Shown here: positions 1,693 to 11,374 of the stretch, in pieces
Layout of the letters: every line of letters starts with the position of its first letter
Position numbering within the stretch: position 1 is the first letter of the stretch
Source of the DNA: an uncultured Clostridia bacterium
Lineage (GTDB): Bacteria > Bacillota > Clostridia > Oscillospirales > Oscillospiraceae
Length of the DNA stretch: 46,386 nt
Direction: 5' to 3'
Assembly (NCBI GenBank): GCA_947177115.1
Contig: CAMWTG010000001.1
Coordinates: 1 to 46,386, forward strand
Program-made: the position numbers and the translations under genes
Notes under the pieces: model-generated
Database searches by the model: none
Told to the model about the DNA's origin: nothing
What the model saw: the letters and a program-made list of their open reading frames with translations, nothing else

Positions 1693-2640
1693 TTATAGGA
1701 TTTTCTCAATCTTCCCGATGAAGTGATAATGGATTTCGATTTTCTGTGTATATAGCCGGCCACTCCTATTTGCTGGATAAACTGCGATCCAGTCGATGAA
1801 TTGCCCGACAATATCCCGCGTTAAAAACTTGATATCAGATGACCTTCCGCCTCCTTCTTAAAATGTGCGAGACCTTCCTGGAACTTCTGGGTGCCTCAAA
1901 TTCTGTCCGGATTTTTTGTTGCGCTTCTTTTAGTTGATCACGCTCCTTAAATAGAAATAGATTGCTGGCAGGACAAATTGCTCGCCATCCATCAACCCCT
2001 TTCACCTTGTCTTCATAAGCTGTAGCCAGACATAATCTGAGCTTGCTCTTGCACTTATCGATGTTCTGTTGCTGCTCTATTAGTTTCTGAATGATTACCT
2101 GCAATTCTATTGACTTTACAATTAAAAATGATAGCAAAGGCTGCTTTCACAATCTCCACAAGAAAGAACTCTGAAAAACAGTAACTGTCTCCCAGAGTTC
2201 TTCCTTGCTTTGTGCAGACCCTATCTGTATTAGATGTGTACTCAGAAAGAGCTTTCGATAATCGTTTCATATATGTCCTGTAAAATAACCATATTTTCAA
2301 CAGCAATCAGCTTGGCTTTGCCAACCAATACTTCGGGGTGAAAGGCAGTATGTACAGAAAGTCCCGAAAATTTTCTAGAAGAGAAAGCAAAAGGCATTCT
2401 CTCCGTCCAGTCCTTTTCCTATCCCAATTCTTGACCGAACAATGCCTCTTAGTCAATTTTTCGACACTCTCCGACAGGCCAATCTTTCGGCCCGTGGCTC
2501 TTTCAGAGGGGAGAACGGAGGCTCTGATAAAATCCCCCCCTACAGACGCAGCACAATGTTTTCGACCTCAGTTCAAAGCTTTTGAACGGTTCTAATCACT
2601 TTTGGCCCATAATATGCAGTCTTCAAGCGGTCACGATAAC
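1693..2640 (-). pseudogene. Decayed large serine recombinase (C-terminal part, multiple frameshifts, catalytic N-domain missing)
   Basis: Successive recombinase-like pieces lie in different minus-strand frames. They are YRDRLKTAYYG (about 2590-2640); a Zn-ribbon-like VCTKQGRTLGDSYCFSEFFLVEIV (ORF 2055-2306); a coiled-coil LATAYEDKVKG...ERDQLKEAQQKI (ORF 1835-2137); and the family-typical C-terminus KFLTRDIVGQFIDWIAVYPANRSGRLYTQKIEIHYHFIGKIEKIL-stop (1693-1857). Recognition is from memory of the family, not a search. Confidence 0.5.
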
Positions 2641-2674: not shown

Positions 2675-3520
2675 TCAGCCCGACTTCTTCAACGCGAATA
2701 GGTTAACGTTCTGCCGGATATCCGGGCTGTCAAAAAGGTCAATATAGATTTTGCAGCCATAGGCAAGCTTGACTTTGCTTTTTTCCAAAGTCCACAGCAT
2801 GATTTCTAGCAGCTCCATATAAGGGATAAACTGTTGTGGACCAATTCGGGTGATTCCCGCACCCATGAGCGGTATTGCAATTGAGCATCCATTATACTGC
2901 ATTCCAATTTCCCGCCACAAATTGAGAAGACATCCAACATAATCCTCAATCGAGAGACATGCCTGATTATCCTCGTCAAACCGAGAAAACGCCACCAGCA
3001 AATAATCGTTGTATTTAAACGCAGTACCGAGCTTATACTGAACTTTTTTCCCCACCGGTCGCTGGGAATTTTGTTTTGAAATACATCTTTGAAGGTGAGG
3101 ATCGTTTTCCAGCACGGAATCTAGTTTGCTGACTGACCCGTCCAGTTGCTTGAGGAACTTTCCGTTTATGGTATTGGAGGAAATCAGCTTATCATCGACC
3201 AGCGTGTCAAAATATTCGTTGAACGCAATTACCTTCAGAGATGATTTGTCCGCAAAAAGATCTGCATACCGGATGACTACCTCAGTTCCGCATAGGCTGA
3301 ACGACACCTCCTCTGTCTGGTTGGCTCCCCTGTAAACTCCGCAATGGAACGCCAGCAATCCCAGTACAATCACAACCAGAATCCAGCATGGCGGCGTAAC
3401 AAACGGAGATACAATGGTTACGACCAGCCCAACGCCGCCTGCAACTGCATAAACCTGGTTTAGGATTCTGCGATCAAATGGGCCAAGCCTCATATTTTGC
3501 TTTGGGTTTACAGTTCTCAT
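2675..3520 (-). CDS. 2-TM membrane protein with C-terminal ThsA-type Macro domain (Thoeris type II ThsA-like effector candidate)
   Basis: 281 aa. Two hydrophobic helices: VYAVAGGVGLVVTIVSPFV (res 23-41) and CWILVVIVLGLLAFHCGVY (res 45-63). Then a ~200-aa domain with Macro-like landmarks: IRYADLFADKSSLKVIAFNEYFDTLVDDKLISSNTINGKF and CSIAIPLMGAGITRIG (compare the macro motif SIAFPxxGxG). SD GAGGGG lies 9 nt upstream of the ATG at 3520, which is 13 nt after the stop of the upstream gene. Confidence 0.6.
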   Translation of the reverse strand: MRTVNPKQNMRLGPFDRRILNQVYAVAGGVGLVVTIVSPFVTPPCWILVVIVLGLLAFHCGVYRGANQTEEVSFSLCGTEVVIRYADLFADKSSLKVIAFNEYFDTLVDDKLISSNTINGKFLKQLDGSVSKLDSVLENDPHLQRCISKQNSQRPVGKKVQYKLGTAFKYNDYLLVAFSRFDEDNQACLSIEDYVGCLLNLWREIGMQYNGCSIAIPLMGAGITRIGPQQFIPYMELLEIMLWTLEKSKVKLAYGCKIYIDLFDSPDIRQNVNLFALKKSG

Positions 3521-3533
3521 ATATTACAGCCCC

Positions 3534-6500
3534 TCACATTGCAGCCGCTTTTTCGTGATCCGTTTTCACAGCATACTGCTTAATGGCCTTATCAATATTT
3601 TTCTGGAAAATTTGGAACGCCTTTTCTAACTCTTCATCCGCTCGCTTTTCCTCCTCCCCGCTCGCTGCCACTGCTTTATTCGTATAAAACTCCACTGTCC
3701 CATCCTGTTTTACATCAATAGCTGCGAAATTCTCCGGATCATTCAATCTTTCCAACATGAGATAGCCAATCTGATCGTCATGCAGATGGTTAATTCCTCG
3801 GTACTCATTTTTATGCCAGCCGCTTCCATCGTAGTCGTTCGTAATGCCAATAATGGTAAAGCAACATTCTGTGCGGAACAACATTTCCACATCCGAACCG
3901 GCACCTTTGGTGGAAAACAGGTCCTCATGGAATCCGTCGAACAATATTCGTTCCTCTCCATAGCGCTCCTTCAGCTTTTCGGCCAACAGCGCAACACGAG
4001 GGTCGTTGTCATGATGCTTGTAAGAGATGCCCACGTAGTACTTTCGTATTCTTCCCGTTTGAAGCGCCTCCAACTGCTCTAAAATCAGGTTGACCGCTTT
4101 CTCCGCGTCGGAGCACACGTTACCCCGAAGCGCAAGGCCCTCCTTTTGTGAAGACTCTCTGTCCTCTTGGAACTGCCACAGAGCAAACGAATTTTTGTTG
4201 TATTTCTTGGACAGTTCCCAGATACCCTTGCTACAATTGATATATCTGCCGTTGAGCAGATAGACAATCAAGCCCTCAGGCTGTTCCAGCCGAGTGAGTT
4301 GCCCCCAGGTATAGATTTGTACGGTTTTCCCCTGAATTCTCAATCCGCTCACAATCTCTGAAGCGTAGCTTGTGTGGGGAGCACTCAGATCACGGACAAG
4401 GATGACGTCCACAGGTCCGCTGGCATCCATTTTTGCAGACCTGGAGATATAATTCATCATCAGTGGCTGCAAATTTTTGCCCGCATAACCGCTTATCACC
4501 CCGTACTGATCATTCAGCAGGTTCAACAACTCCCGTCCCCACGTGATGTGCCTCTTGCCAGAACCGGTGCCCGATGTTTCAGCTAGGTATTGGGCAATAA
4601 TTCCGCAGAAATTGAACAGGCTTAAATGCAGAACGTTCTTTTCGATGGGAATGCTGGGCTTATATTTGCCCACGATAATTAACTTGATGATTGTGTCATC
4701 GTTCTGACACGCCTCATAAACATTGATGAAGTCCTGGCCCTCTTTCGTGTCCGTATCGCTAAAGTAAATCATAAGTGAACGTGCTTTGTCCTGGGTGTTG
4801 TCAAATTGGAGCAGATAGCAACTGGCACTGGTGCCTCTGTACCTGCGGCAGGTCAGATTGACTACCTTGTTCATAATGTTTTCAAATGCTCTTTCCCATG
4901 CTGCTTTGTTTTCTATCCCATCTTCAAACTGGTACATGGTCAAGAAGACATCTCGCTCATCCTGTTCCAATATCTGATCCTCACAGAGCCTCTCGAGTAG
5001 ATTTGTGAAGCTGTTTTGCAGATAGCGCTGGTCGATGGTACTGACAATCTGATCCCTCATCTCCATGGTGATCGCCTTCTCAAACTCCTCTTCCCGCGCC
5101 TCTTTCAAAAACACAATCGCATTTTCATAATCGTCCGAATGCTTCTTAGCCAACCGCCCAATTTTTAGGATGGTTTTTCGGTCCAGTGTAATAATATGAC
5201 GGTTTGCAATTGGCACTAACTCCCGCCCCATGCCGTATTTAACGCGGGTAGACAGATAGTAAAACTCGTTGGACAGTTTAGTTCCTAAACGATTCTTCGA
5301 GACGTTGATTGCTTTTGACAGTGCTTCAATCTGATAGCTACACACCTCCGCAAGTCGCTCCACATCACCAGTGATGATTACAGCCTTTGACAAGCCCGTC
5401 TCCTTTTTAATTTCTTTGACCGTCTGCCCCTTGGTCCAGTGGAGTAAGATCACAGCCCGGATGAGTGCATTGAGATTTGATGTTGTTGGGGTATCATTGC
5501 CGTTAAAAAACTCCTCCAGCGGGGAGTTTTTCCATACACCATGCTCCTTTTTATACTTGTCAAGGTATCCTAAAAGGGCGCTGACTGTATTGGTAAAACG
5601 GTCGACCCTGTACAGATTGTCCTCCGGTGCGTTGAGGTTTACACCTATTTCAACCTCTGAAGTCAGGCAGATTCGGAATAGGATGTCAAGCAGATATTTG
5701 TCGTTTTGGATCTCTTTCGCAGTCACATCGTATGGTAGACCACCATCTCCTGGAGAGGAAAGGCCATCGCACACCAGATATGTATAGATATCGAAGCATG
5801 TGTGACAAGAGAGAGCATAGGGGGACATACACTCCCCATATTTTCTCAGTTCAGCGGTCTCTGTTTGGGTAAAAGGGTTTTTTCTCAGATTCAACAACTG
5901 AGCCCGTTCCAGCCATTTCAGCATCTCTCTGACACGATCCGTAGAGCGACTTCCTTTTTCACCGGATCGGTCGTTGAGCAACGCATCTTTGGCGTTGCTC
6001 TCTGCGATTGCCTCTATCTTGCAACAATTTCCAAAGGAATGTGCCTCCACCTCTGCAAGCCGGTCGATCAATACCATATTTTGTCCGACCGCACTGAAGC
6101 GGAGATTGGTCATGATATTCAAATAATATGGTGCATGTTGCAACGCGACATCGCTATTATCTGCCTCGTAGCTTGGCAAGGACGATACGATTTCCACCTG
6201 CTCCGGAAAGACATAATAGTGCCAGCAATTGCTGATTTCTTTGGGCGAAACCAGTAAATAACTCTGACCATACGCCTTATCAAATCCAAGTCTACCCGCA
6301 CGACCGATAAAATTTTTATATTCCTGCGGCAACAGTTCATGCTCTGTGTGATCCCCGCGATAGACCGTCTTGTCATAAAGCACCATGATATCGGTAGGCA
6401 TATTCATGCCGATGGTCAAAGTCTCAGTAGCAACGATGATATTGATTGCGCCGTTGGTGTCGGAAAAGTCATTCTCAATCACCTGCCGCAAACTAACGGG

Positions 6501-7610
6501 GAGCGCGGAATTGTGAAACGCGATGCCGTAGGGCAGCATATTTTCCAGCAACTCCATCTGAAACTCATCGTTATCGACCTTCTCTACCTGTTCATAAAGA
6601 GACTTAGGCAGTTCCCGGCGCTCATACAGACCGCTTTGACACAACAGCTTTGCCAGGAATCTTGTCTTATTCCGGCTGTTGGCAAAAATAATAATTTTGC
6701 TTTGCCGGAGCTTTCCTGTGTCCTTGCGCTGGATATCCCTCATAAGACTAACAAGTAGATTGTTTTTATGCTCTGGAACAGAAGCCTGGTCGGGCAACTT
6801 ACTGTCAAGTTCGATATACGCCTCTATAGGATCGTCGACGCCATTGACGGGGGCAAGATTGGCGCTTCCACTATCCCCATGCTCCACATGCTTCCAGCCC
6901 TTCCCGTTTGTGGCAATGATATACTCCTCCAGCGCGACAGGACGCTTCGAATTGCCCAAAACATAACTGACGTTCATCCATTTTCTGAGACTGTTGACCT
7001 TCGTATGATTGGTTGTCAGCCCCATAATGCGGATGTCCTGATACCACTCCAGCACACGTTGAAGCGAGAATTCAAGCTTGGGGCCGCGACCGTTGGTGGA
7101 AAGCATCTGGATTTCGTCCACAATCAATAGTCCACACTTGTCCAATAGGCGGCTTCCATACTGGGCAATTAGTGCAAAAAACTTCTCATACACGATGATT
7201 GCAACGTCATATTCTCCCTGCACCAGATCGCCATCATGGTCTTGATAGTCCGCCGATGCGGCGAAGACCCGCTTTTCGTCCAAATCCCCGCTGAACACCT
7301 TCCAGCGCTCATGGACCATTGCCTTGAGGGGAACCAAGACAATCACTTGACTGCGATGGCCCTGATTGTGGGAAAGGCACGAGATGGCGGCAATTTCCGA
7401 TAGTAGGGTCTTACCGGAAGAGGTGGCACCCTGGATCACGATATTGGAGGTGGTATCGGACCAAAAGTTTGGGTCGTTCAGCACTTCTTTCTGCAGCGCA
7501 GTCAGTTCAAATTTTCGTGTTCCGTTATTTGAAAGACGCTGCTCAACCCGCTGCAGAGTTTCACGCGGAAGCTGGTGTGCGGTCACTAACGCTTCGAACT
7601 CAGTAATCAT
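3534..7610 (-). CDS. Ski2/Hel308-like SF2 helicase fused to a C-terminal TIR-like domain
   Basis: 1358 aa.
- Helicase motifs: I GATSSGKT (7407-7430), II LLIVDEIQ, Ski2-type block GIAFHNSALPVSLRQVIENDFSDTNGAINIIVATETLTIGMNMP, VI NFIGRAGRLG.
- Hel308 ratchet-like LNALIRAVILLHWTKGQTVKEIKKETGLSKAVIITGDVERLAEV.
- C-terminal residues ~1189-1310 (nt ~3684-4046) read as a TIR fold: YYVGISYKHHD / RVALLAEKLKERYG / ILFDGF / GAGSDVEMLFRT / CCFTIIGITNDYDGSGWHKNEYRGI.
- The ATG at 7610 overlaps the upstream stop (ATGA). Confidence 0.85.
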   Translation of the reverse strand: MITEFEALVTAHQLPRETLQRVEQRLSNNGTRKFELTALQKEVLNDPNFWSDTTSNIVIQGATSSGKTLLSEIAAISCLSHNQGHRSQVIVLVPLKAMVHERWKVFSGDLDEKRVFAASADYQDHDGDLVQGEYDVAIIVYEKFFALIAQYGSRLLDKCGLLIVDEIQMLSTNGRGPKLEFSLQRVLEWYQDIRIMGLTTNHTKVNSLRKWMNVSYVLGNSKRPVALEEYIIATNGKGWKHVEHGDSGSANLAPVNGVDDPIEAYIELDSKLPDQASVPEHKNNLLVSLMRDIQRKDTGKLRQSKIIIFANSRNKTRFLAKLLCQSGLYERRELPKSLYEQVEKVDNDEFQMELLENMLPYGIAFHNSALPVSLRQVIENDFSDTNGAINIIVATETLTIGMNMPTDIMVLYDKTVYRGDHTEHELLPQEYKNFIGRAGRLGFDKAYGQSYLLVSPKEISNCWHYYVFPEQVEIVSSLPSYEADNSDVALQHAPYYLNIMTNLRFSAVGQNMVLIDRLAEVEAHSFGNCCKIEAIAESNAKDALLNDRSGEKGSRSTDRVREMLKWLERAQLLNLRKNPFTQTETAELRKYGECMSPYALSCHTCFDIYTYLVCDGLSSPGDGGLPYDVTAKEIQNDKYLLDILFRICLTSEVEIGVNLNAPEDNLYRVDRFTNTVSALLGYLDKYKKEHGVWKNSPLEEFFNGNDTPTTSNLNALIRAVILLHWTKGQTVKEIKKETGLSKAVIITGDVERLAEVCSYQIEALSKAINVSKNRLGTKLSNEFYYLSTRVKYGMGRELVPIANRHIITLDRKTILKIGRLAKKHSDDYENAIVFLKEAREEEFEKAITMEMRDQIVSTIDQRYLQNSFTNLLERLCEDQILEQDERDVFLTMYQFEDGIENKAAWERAFENIMNKVVNLTCRRYRGTSASCYLLQFDNTQDKARSLMIYFSDTDTKEGQDFINVYEACQNDDTIIKLIIVGKYKPSIPIEKNVLHLSLFNFCGIIAQYLAETSGTGSGKRHITWGRELLNLLNDQYGVISGYAGKNLQPLMMNYISRSAKMDASGPVDVILVRDLSAPHTSYASEIVSGLRIQGKTVQIYTWGQLTRLEQPEGLIVYLLNGRYINCSKGIWELSKKYNKNSFALWQFQEDRESSQKEGLALRGNVCSDAEKAVNLILEQLEALQTGRIRKYYVGISYKHHDNDPRVALLAEKLKERYGEERILFDGFHEDLFSTKGAGSDVEMLFRTECCFTIIGITNDYDGSGWHKNEYRGINHLHDDQIGYLMLERLNDPENFAAIDVKQDGTVEFYTNKAVAASGEEEKRADEELEKAFQIFQKNIDKAIKQYAVKTDHEKAAAM

Positions 7611-10351
7611 GTGGATTCCTCATTTCCTTTTTGCATATTGTGGAGAAAGGGCTTCGCCATTTTGTCAATTTTACTTTTCCAATGCGCCGGAAGTACGGGA
7701 AGCTCTTGTAAAATGGCCCACAACTCACGTCGCTCACGCTTGGTAAGGGGCGGTTCATGACTTCGGACAAATTGGGAAAATGGAACTAATGCTGCCAAGA
7801 TGTGGCGGGTACCCGCCGGAGCCGCCTCTAGCTCCAGCAGTTGGAGAACATCCGCTGGAACTCCGTAAAAAAAGCTCTTTGACCAGTGCGTCAACGTGAC
7901 GCAGAACCCCATCGTATTCACGTTCGTATATGCGATGGCTGAGACCACCCCCAAATAGTAACTGAGCTGTTCACATAGCTTTTTGAGCAGTCCATAAGGA
8001 ATTTTAAACGCGTTATAGAGCGTTCGAATCGGAATTCCGGATGAGAAGCAGATGGACACAGCTGCCGTTGTAACCCCTCGCCGCATTATCTTATTGTGTA
8101 CATCCCAACTAGAGTTCAATTTACAATACAACGAATCAGACAAAAGTCCATTGCTTAAAAGCCCCGAGCCAAACAGTTCGTTTTCGTTCGAGGTCCAATC
8201 CCAGAACGTTGATTTTGATGCCACACAGTACTGGGAGCCGTCAAATATAGTGTTAATAATTTCTGCGATTTTACTCAGCCGACAAAGGTGATAAATCAAA
8301 TCAAACAGATAAATGCGCCCGGAGTTGACGCTGGAATCCAGACTCACTTGAACCAAGTCATATGTCTGTAAGGATTCTCCATAGCCTTTGACTACCTCGC
8401 CCGCCGTGTCCAACCGGTAGATTGGCTGGTCAGAAAGAAACAGGTCACACTCTTGCCGTAAAAGATTACGCTTCATCAGCTGATTTAGCATTTCGTCCAA
8501 ATGTTCCAAGCTCCAAGCTCCGCCGGAAAAAATCAACGCCGGCATCGCCTTCACTTCCTGCTCCAGCATTTCACGTGTTTTCTTTGCTCCCGTGCTGAAC
8601 ATATTCAGAAAATACAGTCCACATTGGTCAACATCAATTTGGCGAAGTTGACTTTGCGCCAATGGAATTTCCCTACGATTGGAAATCTTCCTCCATTCCT
8701 TAAGATGGTTTGTATTCATAATCGGATAAATATATCCTCTCTGCTCCCCACTAACACTGTTTGGCCGTAGCCTACCTGCCCGTCCAGCGCAGTTATTATA
8801 TTCATTCATCGTCATATAGCTACCGCCGTTCATCATATCCGCAATAACAACCACGTCAACGCTACTATTGATCCCGAACGCCAGCGTTTCTGTGCAGACG
8901 ACCACCTTGAACTGCCCATCCTCCTGATACAGTAATTCTTCCTCCACATATTCTCGAAACTCCTGGGGCAGGGATGCGCTGTGTATTCCGATTCCGCTTA
9001 AAATGGCCCTACAGGTGTCTTCACTGAGCACCCCATATAATTCATCCGCCATTCCGACCAAATTCATCTGTTCTAATAGCATATCCATATATGTCCGGCC
9101 CGCCGAGGGCGCAGGCGGAATCTTAAGAAGCCCGGAGTTATACAAAGAATCACACAAATTAGCGGCGATTTCATGGACTTCCGTCCGATTATTAATAAAA
9201 ATCAGAATTTTCTGACTGGACTTCAAATGTATCGCACAGATTTCAGCAATTATCTGATTTCTCCGCACCCCCAACGCAAGTGCGGTGTACGCGTCATCTC
9301 TGGCATAATAGAAGAAATCGTGCGTACAGACAACTGCTTTCAGCTGCCCTTCCGGCTTGCTCAGCTCATTCAGCACAAATTCCCGCACAATGGTCGGTAG
9401 ACAGGGGTCTAGGATGCCAATTCCCCTGCAGAGAAAGCGACTAATGGCTGGAGTAAGGGCCCGGTGCAGTTGCGAATCGTGTCCGATGCCAGCCCGAATC
9501 ATAAACTGTTCAAGGGAAATGGGAGGAAAATGCCCAGAAAATTCTGGATTCTCCAATAAAGCTCCGGCAATCTGATCCGGAGCCTCTCCGCCAAAATCGC
9601 AGATGAAAAGACGTGCTTTCCCTTCCAAATGCGCACTGCAGATTTTAGGGAATACATCATGATACCAAAATATATTACCATCTTCTTGGTATAAATAGGA
9701 TTTATTTTTGGCCCGTGCTATGGGCAACGTACTCAGAGGTACAGGACGTTTTTTGTGTTCGACATATGTAAAACCAAACTGCTGGACATAGTTCTGCCAG
9801 TCATAATATGGAGTGGAGAGGACGATGACTCGTTTTTTTGCAGAGAGTGCCGAAATCAGAAGCAGATCGATTTTTATCCCGCGCTCATTGCTGTTTACCA
9901 GCCCAACTTCATCAAAAACAATATAGTCGAAGTACTTCAAAAACGTGTCACTGCCATCAAATAAATATGCCTTTTCATAAATCATTATTACCGCATCAAA
10001 CCCACCTCGGATGACGCTGGCATCATTTTCCCTGTATTCACCTGTGGAAACCGCAATACGCTGTGAACTGTCTATCATGATATTCAGGTCATGCTGCAAC
10101 TCCCTCCCTTTCTGTGCGGCAAGGGCCCGGTACGGCACCAAATACAGCATACGCTTTGAATAATTCGACCTGTTCTGCTCCCACGCGAACAACAACAACG
10201 GGACTAGGGTCTTTCCGGACGATGTGTCGCCGCAAATCCAAAGATTTTTTTGGAGATATGCTTCTTCGCGGGAAAAAATCGCTTCCTGGAGATCTGTAAA
10301 ACGGTCATACCGCAACCGCTGGATCAAGCTAAGTATTTCACAATAACTCAT
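7607..10351 (-). CDS. Ski2/Hel308-like SF2 helicase (first gene of the operon)
   Basis: Motif I ICGDTSSGKT (10208-10231), motif II IVFDEVG, GIGIHSASLPQEFREYVEEELLYQEDGQFKVVVCTETLAFGINSSVDVVVI, and motif VI NCAGRAGR. An upstream degenerate copy of the same block is present (GIGILDPCLPTIVREFVLNELSKPEGQLKAVVCTHDF). I prefer the ATG at 10351 (MSYCEIL..., GGGGA SD-like 6-7 nt upstream). The track ORF extends to a TTG at 10603 that has no SD, and the 84 extra residues look non-protein-like. Confidence 0.85.
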   Translation of the reverse strand: MSYCEILSLIQRLRYDRFTDLQEAIFSREEAYLQKNLWICGDTSSGKTLVPLLLFAWEQNRSNYSKRMLYLVPYRALAAQKGRELQHDLNIMIDSSQRIAVSTGEYRENDASVIRGGFDAVIMIYEKAYLFDGSDTFLKYFDYIVFDEVGLVNSNERGIKIDLLLISALSAKKRVIVLSTPYYDWQNYVQQFGFTYVEHKKRPVPLSTLPIARAKNKSYLYQEDGNIFWYHDVFPKICSAHLEGKARLFICDFGGEAPDQIAGALLENPEFSGHFPPISLEQFMIRAGIGHDSQLHRALTPAISRFLCRGIGILDPCLPTIVREFVLNELSKPEGQLKAVVCTHDFFYYARDDAYTALALGVRRNQIIAEICAIHLKSSQKILIFINNRTEVHEIAANLCDSLYNSGLLKIPPAPSAGRTYMDMLLEQMNLVGMADELYGVLSEDTCRAILSGIGIHSASLPQEFREYVEEELLYQEDGQFKVVVCTETLAFGINSSVDVVVIADMMNGGSYMTMNEYNNCAGRAGRLRPNSVSGEQRGYIYPIMNTNHLKEWRKISNRREIPLAQSQLRQIDVDQCGLYFLNMFSTGAKKTREMLEQEVKAMPALIFSGGAWSLEHLDEMLNQLMKRNLLRQECDLFLSDQPIYRLDTAGEVVKGYGESLQTYDLVQVSLDSSVNSGRIYLFDLIYHLCRLSKIAEIINTIFDGSQYCVASKSTFWDWTSNENELFGSGLLSNGLLSDSLYCKLNSSWDVHNKIMRRGVTTAAVSICFSSGIPIRTLYNAFKIPYGLLKKLCEQLSYYLGVVSAIAYTNVNTMGFCVTLTHWSKSFFYGVPADVLQLLELEAAPAGTRHILAALVPFSQFVRSHEPPLTKRERRELWAILQELPVLPAHWKSKIDKMAKPFLHNMQKGNEEST

Positions 10352-10626
10352 ACAAACATCCCCAATCAAGTGCAGGATAAGCAATGGAGTGCAAGGAGGA
10401 TTTGGACCTGTTTGAATCTTAGCAATATGCTCAACTGAGAGATTTTTTTGCCGAATGACGCAGTTTGATGCAAAAATATCATGTATATTTCCAGTCAAAA
10501 CATCGAAATGTTGAGGAAGAAGGACTGCGGATTGAGCTTGTTGACATTTAAACAAGCCATGGAACTTGTTGATTAGTATATACCCAATTTCAACAAATTT
10601 CAACTAAAACGATGCAAAATTTTGGT

Positions 10627-10802: not shown

Positions 10803-10930
10803 AGAAAAAGCACTCTATCGTTGGAACATTCTCAAAATTCAGTTTTTGGTGTAAATACTGCTGCTTGACTGCCCGCAAACCGTTGATATCACTGAATTTT
10901 TCGGTAAATCCTATATCGCCACTCGGACCA
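10803..10930. repeat. Direct repeat copy B (same orientation as copy A, upstream of the helicase operon)
   Basis: See copy A. It ends at 10930 with the identical 34-nt terminus and is directly fused to the integrase 3' fragment. Confidence 0.85.
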
Positions 10931-11179
10931 TTGGCGATGACAGTAAATCTCCACAAGAAGATCCTGCAGGATGCCGGACTGGAGCACATCCCCTTCCATG
11001 CGTTGAGACACACCTTCGCCACCACCGCCCTCCAAACCAGTATAGATGTGAAAACAGTCTCCAGTATGCTGGGCTACTACTCCGCAGGCTTCACATTGAC
11101 CACTTACGCCCACGCCACCGCCCGGATGCAGGAGGAAGCCGCCAGCAGGATGGGCAGCTACATGGCGCAGAATCTGTAG
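10931..11179 (+). pseudogene. Tyrosine recombinase/integrase, C-terminal ~80-aa fragment only
   Basis: ...LHKKILQDAGLEHIPFHALRHTFATTALQTSIDVKTVSSMLGYYSAGFTLTTYAHATARMQEEAA... carries the HxLRH box and the catalytic Tyr context (TYAH). Everything N-terminal to this is replaced by repeat copy B at 10930. The track ORF 10865-11179 begins at a TTG inside the repeat. Confidence 0.75.
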
Positions 11180-11224: not shown

Positions 11225-11265
11225 ATAAATCCCACGCTTGATAAATAGGCAGACAAAACAACAAA

Positions 11266-11296
11266 ATCCCCGGAAAACTCGAAGTTTTCCGGGGAT
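11266..11296 (-). terminator. Terminator downstream of tRNA-Thr
   Basis: 13-bp stem atccccggaaaac/gttttccggggat with a 5-nt loop. On the minus strand it is followed by TTTGTTGTTTTG. Confidence 0.7.
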
Positions 11297-11298
11297 CT

Positions 11299-11374
11299 TG
11301 GAGCTGGAAATCAGACTCGAACTGACGACCTGCTGATTACGAATCAGCTGCTCTACCAACTGAGCTATTCCAGC
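11299..11374 (-). tRNA. tRNA-Thr (anticodon CGU), CCA encoded
   Basis: Hand-folded cloverleaf: acceptor GCTGGAA/TTCCAGC, D arm GCTC-AGTTGGTA-GAGC, anticodon arm GCTGA-TTCGTAA-TCAGC (CGT), variable AGGTC, T arm GTCAG-TTCGAGT-CTGAT, discriminator T plus CCA. 76 nt. Confidence 0.9.

Follow-up and report, generated by a model that had tools for sequence, protein, structure and literature searches.

What signal could operate a Thoeris membrane effector that has no stand-alone TIR partner? The question is raised by a 46,386-nucleotide stretch of DNA from an uncultured Clostridia bacterium of the Oscillospiraceae (assembly GCA_947177115.1, contig CAMWTG010000001.1, positions 1 to 46,386 of the forward strand; hereafter, the window), in which a thsA-like gene lies immediately behind two helicase genes. 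In type II Thoeris, the transmembrane (TM)-Macro protein ThsA is paired with the TIR protein ThsB, with signaling by histidine-ADP-ribose (His-ADPR) (Sabonis et al., bioRxiv 10.1101/2024.01.03.573942; Shi et al., Sci Adv 2024, PMC11204291). A hidden Markov model (HMM) iterated on the ThsBs of canonical loci found no free-standing ThsB in the window, where the sole TIR is the C terminus of the second helicase. We propose, with a probability of roughly 65%, that the helicases, this TIR, and the ThsA-like protein constitute a helicase-triggered, TIR-signaled, Macro-TM-executed anti-phage defense operon. It is transcribed right to left in the order helicase A (10351/10603-7607), helicase B-TIR (7610-3534), and thsA (3520-2675), and the features on which the argument turns are as follows.

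2675 to 3520, minus strand: thsA-like effector gene, an open reading frame (ORF) of 281 aa with an ATG start; N-terminal two-TM hairpin and C-terminal ThsA-type Macro domain.
3332 to 3454, minus strand: predicted ThsA TM helix pair, residues 23 to 41 and 45 to 63 with a TPP turn between them, from hydropathy and AlphaFold2 (AF2).
2684 to 3310, minus strand: ThsA Macro domain, residues 71 to 279, from residue mapping onto Bacillus amyloliquefaciens ThsA.
3521 to 3533, minus strand: intergenic spacer of 13 nt with a Shine-Dalgarno-like GAGGGG, between the helicase B-TIR stop and the thsA start.
3534 to 7610, minus strand: helicase B-TIR gene, 1358 aa; Hel308/Ski2-like superfamily 2 (SF2) helicase, middle region of about 700 aa, C-terminal TIR.
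3681 to 4049, minus strand: TIR domain, about residues 1188 to 1310 (about 125 aa) of helicase B, from alignment, profile, and AF2; codon of the glutamate E1269 at 3804-3806.
7607 to 10603, minus strand: helicase A gene; the mechanical ORF has 998 aa from TTG 10603, and the likely start is ATG 10351 (914 aa).

The identity of the effector emerges from several independent comparisons. The Pfam family PF20016 (ThsA_Macro) matches residues 81 to 259 with E=1.3e-48 and 165.6 bits (cut-off, 25), the PADLOC ThsA1 model PDLC00413 matches residues 12 to 279 with E=1.1e-74, and four distinct solved ThsA Macro sequences (8v6q, 9uuz, 8r66, and 8v6s) match with E of about 1e-44. An AF2 model of the protein, built with 35 homologues and scoring 86.7 in the predicted local distance difference test (pLDDT), has helices at residues 17 to 37 and 45 to 67 followed by an alpha/beta/alpha domain. 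Foldseek placed EcThsA, B. amyloliquefaciens ThsA, and PcThsA first among its structural relatives (E of 1e-20 to 1e-23); these entries (8v6r, 8v6q, 8r66, and 8v6s) gave target TM-scores of 0.89 to 0.92, a root mean square deviation (rmsd) of about 2 Å, and 36 to 41% identity, with generic macrodomains ranking far below. Kyte-Doolittle hydropathy in 19-residue windows peaks at residues 23 to 41 (2.03) and again at 40 to 58/45 to 63 (2.3 to 2.4), and the first 22 residues hold five K/R against one D/E, a basic N terminus consistent with an N-in hairpin and a cytoplasmic Macro domain. The motifs FNEYFDT and [LI]P[LVI][LM]GSGITR, which served as search patterns for the ThsA family, are among its most conserved stretches, the window protein reading GAGITR in the second, and T224 and R225 fall in family-invariant columns. 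An earlier model-made reading of the letters alone (the sequence-only reading) had picked out the two hydrophobic helices at 23 to 41 and 45 to 63, a ThsA-type Macro domain behind them, and a segment and a glycine loop that it took to be typical of the ThsA Macro family; hydropathy and model bear out the helices, the profile search and structure comparison that it had suggested both lead to ThsA, and the two quoted stretches are indeed those that the family conserves best. Hence, the protein is a type II Thoeris-style membrane effector, with two predicted TM helices and a Macro domain. Taken alone, it is an ordinary though divergent member of a known family, its closest relatives being about 40% identical.

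The ligand pocket can be compared residue by residue. The His-ADPR contacts of B. amyloliquefaciens ThsA are D100, N133, Q135, S194, R240, and Y277 (Sabonis et al., bioRxiv 10.1101/2024.01.03.573942), and these were mapped by HMMER alignment to 8r66, the numbering offset being validated by the agreement of all six residue types. Four of the six contacts are identical in the window protein (D100, N133, S194, and R240 correspond to D87, N119, S179, and R225), Y277 is replaced conservatively by F263, which is still aromatic, and Q135 by K121. The roles that are kept comprise the adenine-binding aspartate, both ribose contacts, and the arginine that holds the histidine carboxylate. As far as the alignment allows, the pocket fits His-ADPR or a close derivative of ADP-ribose (ADPR).

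The source of such a ligand would be the C-terminal domain of helicase B. A TIR-type domain at this position is common to 43 of the best 120 helicase homologues, and an alignment of 24 such domains keeps G1194, S1196, C1249, and E1269 invariant, the column of E1269 aligning with the catalytic glutamate of the WCxxE motif in the SNC1 TIR. When the helicase B C terminus was searched against the Protein Data Bank (PDB) as a single sequence, no significant TIR match was found; the family profile gave weak matches to TIR domains of plants and animals (SNC1, RUN1, and SIGIRR; E=0.078 for SNC1). In the AF2 model of the domain (pLDDT, 80.7; predicted template modeling score, 0.77), the elements follow the order betaA-alphaA-betaB-alphaB-betaC-alphaC-betaD-alphaD-betaE of the flavodoxin-like TIR fold. 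Twelve of the top 14 PDB matches returned by Foldseek are TIR domains with a probability of about 1.0, among them those of TLR, MyD88, SPARTA, TIR-STING, and EcThsB2, and the isolated TIR entries have target TM-scores of 0.55 to 0.66. The deciding result for a TIR_2-type assignment comes from proteins other than helicases. The family profile matched 1086 proteins at E<=1e-3 among 1.84 billion representatives, about 60 of the matches being helicase-TIR proteins, and in eight of 10 non-helicase proteins sampled from the matches at E<=1e-10, Pfam TIR_2 lies on the very stretch that the profile matched, four times above the 28-bit cut-off. On the strength of profiles and model, then, the C-terminal domain is predicted to be a TIR_2-type TIR with a catalytic-type glutamate.

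The helicases themselves are paralogous, and both retain the ATPase motifs (Walker A, DExx, and GRAGR). In helicase B, these are Walker A K67, DEIQ at residues 165 to 168, and GRAGR at 436 to 440; Pfam reports DEAD, Helicase_C, and ResIII together with a weak Hel308 domain 4, and the NCBIfam Hel308 matches are partial. Helicase A carries the Pfam domains DEAD and Helicase_C, with Walker A K131, DEVG, and GRAGR 607 in the numbering of the 998-aa ORF. The first 84 codons of that ORF have no counterpart in homologues and, because the homologue alignment begins at residue 85, the real start is probably ATG 10351, giving 914 aa; the public annotation of 998 aa may be over-extended. Two established identities were considered for the pair and rejected. 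Orthology with Hel308 fails on the partial NCBIfam matches, which reach 143 bits against an equivalog cut-off of 1200, and Hachiman fails since the HamB models match the helicase core only and the other genes of the operon are a second helicase and ThsA. The best PADLOC matches are the defense helicases HamB and PDC-M23B, in the core only (E of about 1e-25). As for the gene junctions, the helicase A stop and the helicase B start overlap as ATGA, and the helicase B-TIR stop codon (TGA, 3534-3536) and the thsA start at 3520 are tightly linked without overlap.

How unusual this arrangement is can be judged from a background sample of 80 metagenomic ThsA_Macro loci found with a ThsA alignment. A small ThsB-like TIR ORF (about 165 to 210 aa) lies within 1.5 kb on the same strand in 57 of them. 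Another 18 loci have flanks of adequate length; in eight of the nine that were looked at among them, an "MxHKCFISxKKED" ORF of about 206 to 216 aa lies directly downstream, which by eye we judge to be a second ThsB family. A helicase of the present family stands beside ThsA at none of the 80 sampled loci, and the helicase arrangement is a rare variant among ThsA loci. Two further arrangements occur: at locus L104 (9001-11827), a ThsA homologue (P0034, 42% identical to the window ThsA) is paired with a 653-aa TIR-TPR protein and not with a small ThsB, and locus L026 (8444-10205) holds a tandem pair of ThsA_Macro genes. The 57 loci agree with the expectation of the sequence-only reading that homologues of the effector occur next to TIR genes, and its view of the neighboring gene as TIR-bearing is upheld by the profile and structural evidence, which includes the conserved catalytic-type glutamate. 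The linkage that it called translational is tight, as it said, although the 13-nt gap with its Shine-Dalgarno-like GAGGGG and the lack of overlap make that word slightly too strong. Its comparison with the type II Thoeris effector was right for the effector itself; the partner is not ThsB but a helicase-borne TIR, which makes this a non-canonical Thoeris variant.

Outside the window, three divergent lineages carry the same cassette of two helicases, TIR, and ThsA. In the first (L002-L004), a protein 49% identical to helicase B (P0122) is followed, with a 1-nt overlap, by a 270-aa ThsA_Macro gene, on three contigs and beside a serine recombinase. In another (L005-L007), P0124 (34% identity to helicase B) is followed by a 274-aa ThsA_Macro gene with an 11-nt overlap, in a chromosomal sugar-utilization context. 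The remaining lineage, at L105 (1-6427), encodes helicase A, a helicase B of 1133 aa that lacks the TIR (P0157), a separate 191-aa TIR, and a 284-aa ThsA_Macro protein, all genes overlapping; by BLAST, the P0124 TIR matches this separate TIR, P0288, best. The occurrence of the same domain fused in the window and split at L105 is classic evidence, at the level of gene structure, for what would be a functional link. Eleven of the best 120 helicase matches measure about 1130 to 1160 aa and may be of this split type. The TIRs linked to ThsA fall into two small clusters, separate from the remaining helicase TIRs, and bear more resemblance than these to free-standing TIR proteins. The P0123 locus ends too soon to show any downstream ThsA, and a genome scan with a narrower TIR alignment found a single locus, L011, which has no ThsA.

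Related helicase pairs have other outputs. At L008-L010, paralogous pairs end in a Ser/Thr kinase (PD-T4-6-like; the mad6 and MkoA models also match), are preceded by a 530-aa protein of no assigned function, and lack ThsA; they point to a modular family of helicase pair plus output domain that has no system name in PADLOC 2.0. In a different helicase-TIR clade (L015, 7292-10216, and L016), a 974-aa protein encoded 10 nt downstream ends in a Card1/CARF-type PD-(D/E)xK nuclease, which points to a signaling module with exchangeable effectors. This protein at L015 has no sequence relative in the PDB, and its N-terminal 800 aa, in which no domain was recognizable, could be a new sensor for the TIR product. 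The helicase-TIR family co-localizes with TIR-signaling systems: the pairs at L012 and L099/L100 share islands with canonical ThsA-ThsB pairs, SLATT-domain genes, and other TIR genes.

The surroundings in the window are those of a mobile segment, and the following features lie in or around it.

10575 to 10603, minus strand: best sigma-70-like promoter match (TTGAAA-17-TATACT, 10/12) in a consensus scan, inside the first 84 helicase A codons and upstream of ATG 10351.
1472 to 1570, no strand: left copy of a 99-nt direct repeat, 85% identical to the right copy; the repeats bracket a 9.3-kb low-GC cassette.
10832 to 10930, no strand: right copy of the 99-nt direct repeat, running into a truncated tyrosine-integrase fragment (10865-11179, plus strand).
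11299 to 11374, minus strand: tRNA-Thr (CGU), followed by an 18-bp stem terminator (span, 11262-11374), between mnmA and the integrase fragment.

GC content is about 45% in the cassette segment and about 60% on either side of it. Both repeat copies translate to "...FSVNPISPLGP...", and they may delimit an inserted module or stem from duplication of part of an integrase. Phage_integrase matches the 80-aa called gene of the integrase fragment (L001), and the tRNA-Thr, between this fragment and mnmA, marks a typical island integration site. The left repeat adjoins ParA/ParB and a DUF4368 fragment. The stretch between thsA and ParA (1835-2306, minus strand, and about 1693-1833) holds two small ORFs of 100 and 83 aa that overlap and match nothing in Pfam; the public record calls here a DUF4368 fragment of 46 aa, which belongs to the C-terminal domain of a serine recombinase. 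Probably, these are mobile-element genes in decay. The cassette sits on an island gained by horizontal transfer. The plasmid, phage, and viral-contig collections contained no close relative at the DNA or protein level: a megablast of the island against plasmids, a search of plasmids and phages with helicase B by tblastn, and a scan of viral contigs returned only generic helicase cores. Sigma-70-like sites in the region are no more numerous than expected from shuffled sequence, which leaves the match at 10575-10603 as a candidate promoter only.

From these elements, a mechanism can be sketched. The two Hel308/Ski2-like SF2 helicases would jointly sense infection, probably as a heterodimer on a phage nucleic-acid structure or replication intermediate, and sensing would free or cluster the TIR. 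The TIR might then, via E1269, convert NAD+ into an ADP-ribose-derived messenger, for which homology makes His-ADPR or a near analogue the most plausible candidate. The cytoplasmic Macro domain of ThsA would bind this messenger, as the largely conserved contact residues suggest. Following published work on type II Thoeris, oligomerization of the Macro domains may cluster the TM hairpins and result in membrane damage or growth arrest. The proposal of a helicase-triggered defense operon rests on the identities of the domains, the way the genes are ordered and coupled, the repeated occurrence of the cassette in divergent lineages, its split-gene version, and the island context; defense activity, trigger, and signal are predicted.

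Several observations weigh against it. Every member of the family is known from sequence and predicted structure only. The Pfam TIR_2 match on the single helicase B C terminus is below threshold (E=0.089), no PADLOC ThsB model matches it, and Foldseek gave modest E-values (1e-3 to 1e-1) for the modeled TIR. BLAST and HMM comparisons found no similarity between the helicase-borne TIRs and the ThsBs beside ThsA in the 80 canonical loci; orthology to type II ThsB was therefore rejected, and production of His-ADPR cannot be deduced from orthology. On the receiving side, the change from Q135 to K121 may shift ligand preference. Furthermore, ThsA is absent downstream of the helicase-TIR homologues at L011, L097, L099, and L101, where the TIR may work by itself as an NADase, and the helicase-linked ThsAs of the window, L002, and L005 are not each other's closest relatives.

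The ThsA-less loci lend themselves to a different explanation, the main rival, which we regard as unlikely: the helicase-TIR pair could be a self-contained abortive infection system in which the TIR merely depletes NAD+ and ThsA, as a secondary amplifier, responds to the plain product of hydrolysis, ADPR, and not to a dedicated messenger. Three of these loci (L011, L097, and L099) have no ThsA or other obvious effector, and the top structural match of the ThsA-like model is EcThsA complexed with ADPR. Yet the window protein keeps, as R225, the arginine whose contact in His-ADPR is the histidine carboxylate, and the separate clustering of the ThsA-linked TIRs, nearer to free-standing TIRs, fits a distinct signaling chemistry, while the split TIR and ThsA of L105 resemble a standard ThsB-ThsA pair joined to helicases. 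Alternatively, ThsA might be the orphan of a degraded canonical type II system that came to lie beside an unrelated helicase system by chance. Defense genes do cluster, L012 has a canonical ThsA-ThsB pair a few kilobases from a helicase-TIR pair, and the background sample without a single helicase neighbor would suit such an accident. We nevertheless consider it highly improbable, given that four lineages, with helicases only 32 to 49% and ThsAs 26 to 44% identical, share this gene order and have their genes separated or overlapping by no more than 13 nt; a ThsB remnant is not detectable in the window, and the kinase-type helicase paralogues occur without ThsA.

If the cassette had a non-immune role, the mobile element would use the helicases for replication, repair, or maintenance, whereas NAD/ADPR-linked regulation or scaffolding of protein interactions would be the task of the TIR and Macro domains. 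The adjoining ParA/ParB and recombinase fragments can be read in this way, Hel308-type helicases (the partial NCBIfam matches) are repair enzymes, and the defense role of the family is a predicted one. Against this, the Hel308 score of 143 bits is far under the equivalog cut-off of 1200, the best PADLOC matches of the helicases are to HamB and PDC-M23B, the partner domains (TIR, two-TM-Macro, PD-T4-6-like kinase, and Card1-type nuclease) are typical immune effectors, and the loci lie in islands rich in TIR, SLATT, and restriction-modification genes, all of which makes a non-immune cassette very doubtful to us. Chance adjacency and a non-immune role both fit the data poorly. The helicase-triggered defense operon can also be set in a wider frame, for which we see an even balance of chances: a Hel308-like helicase pair would sense infection in an undescribed type of Thoeris and license a fused or separate TIR to make an ADPR-derived messenger for a Macro-gated membrane effector, and "helicase pair plus exchangeable output" (TIR and ThsA, TIR and Card1-type nuclease, TIR alone, or Ser/Thr kinase) would be an unnamed modular defense superfamily. 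Such a superfamily would escape current tools because its TIR scores below the Pfam and PADLOC thresholds.

Among described systems, type II Thoeris is the nearest. The window ThsA shares its architecture and fold, the two predicted TM helices, and most of the residues at the His-ADPR contact positions, and the gene is tightly linked to one that bears a TIR with a catalytic-type glutamate. Unlike type II Thoeris, the window has no stand-alone ThsB of about 170 to 210 aa; a TIR_2-type TIR is fused to a 1358-aa helicase, and a second helicase gene is added. The sensor-fused variants (ThsA_Macro with TIR-TPR, as at L104) and the Thoeris types of Yirmiya et al. 2025 (bioRxiv 10.64898/2025.12.03.692087) likewise combine a TIR signal generator with a ligand-gated effector from modular parts. 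In the latter, however, the effector varies around small TIR genes, whereas the new part of the window is the sensor side, the helicase pair. Hachiman (HamA nuclease and HamB helicase) and the PADLOC candidate PDC-M23 are alike in having an SF2 helicase core and a helicase that acts as a sensor of infection or genome integrity and controls an effector; unlike Hachiman, the window has no HamA/DUF1837 partner, its helicases are two and paralogous, and the output is a TIR and a membrane effector. In the NAD+-depleting TIR fusions (SPARTA TIR-APAZ/pAgo, TIR-STING, and TIR-SAVED), some of them among the top structural matches, the TIR is fused or bound to a sensing module and activated by oligomerization. 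There, the TIR is the terminal effector, in contrast to the subset of the helicase-TIR family that encodes a Macro-TM effector downstream. By analogy only, the dual-cassette Ski2-like helicases Brr2 and ASCC3 also have two paralogous Ski2/Hel308-like cassettes working together, but in one polypeptide and not, as here, in two translationally coupled bacterial genes with an immune context.

In their systematic survey of TIRs, Yirmiya et al. (bioRxiv 10.64898/2025.12.03.692087) mention helicases nowhere, nor do two structure papers on type II Thoeris, and full-text literature searches, which covered only a minority of subscription-journal papers, found no account of a helicase-TIR Thoeris, of Hel308/Ski2 with Thoeris, or of tandem-helicase defense. 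On our best reading, helicase-linked Thoeris is a new variant of Thoeris, ThsA itself belonging to a known family.

How Thoeris TIR proteins recognize infection is still largely open; one named trigger is the capsid, which a staphylococcal ThsB is reported to sense (PMC12578639). If the present proposal is true, a Thoeris-type effector wired to a helicase-borne TIR adds a nucleic-acid-sensing input to TIR/ADPR signaling. Given the blind spot of Pfam and PADLOC for this TIR, annotation of such a locus might list its ThsA as an orphan and place the helicase pair in no class. The window and L105, with their fused and split forms, together with the alternative kinase and Card1-type nuclease outputs, would offer a natural series in which to follow the recombination of sensors and effectors in bacterial immunity.

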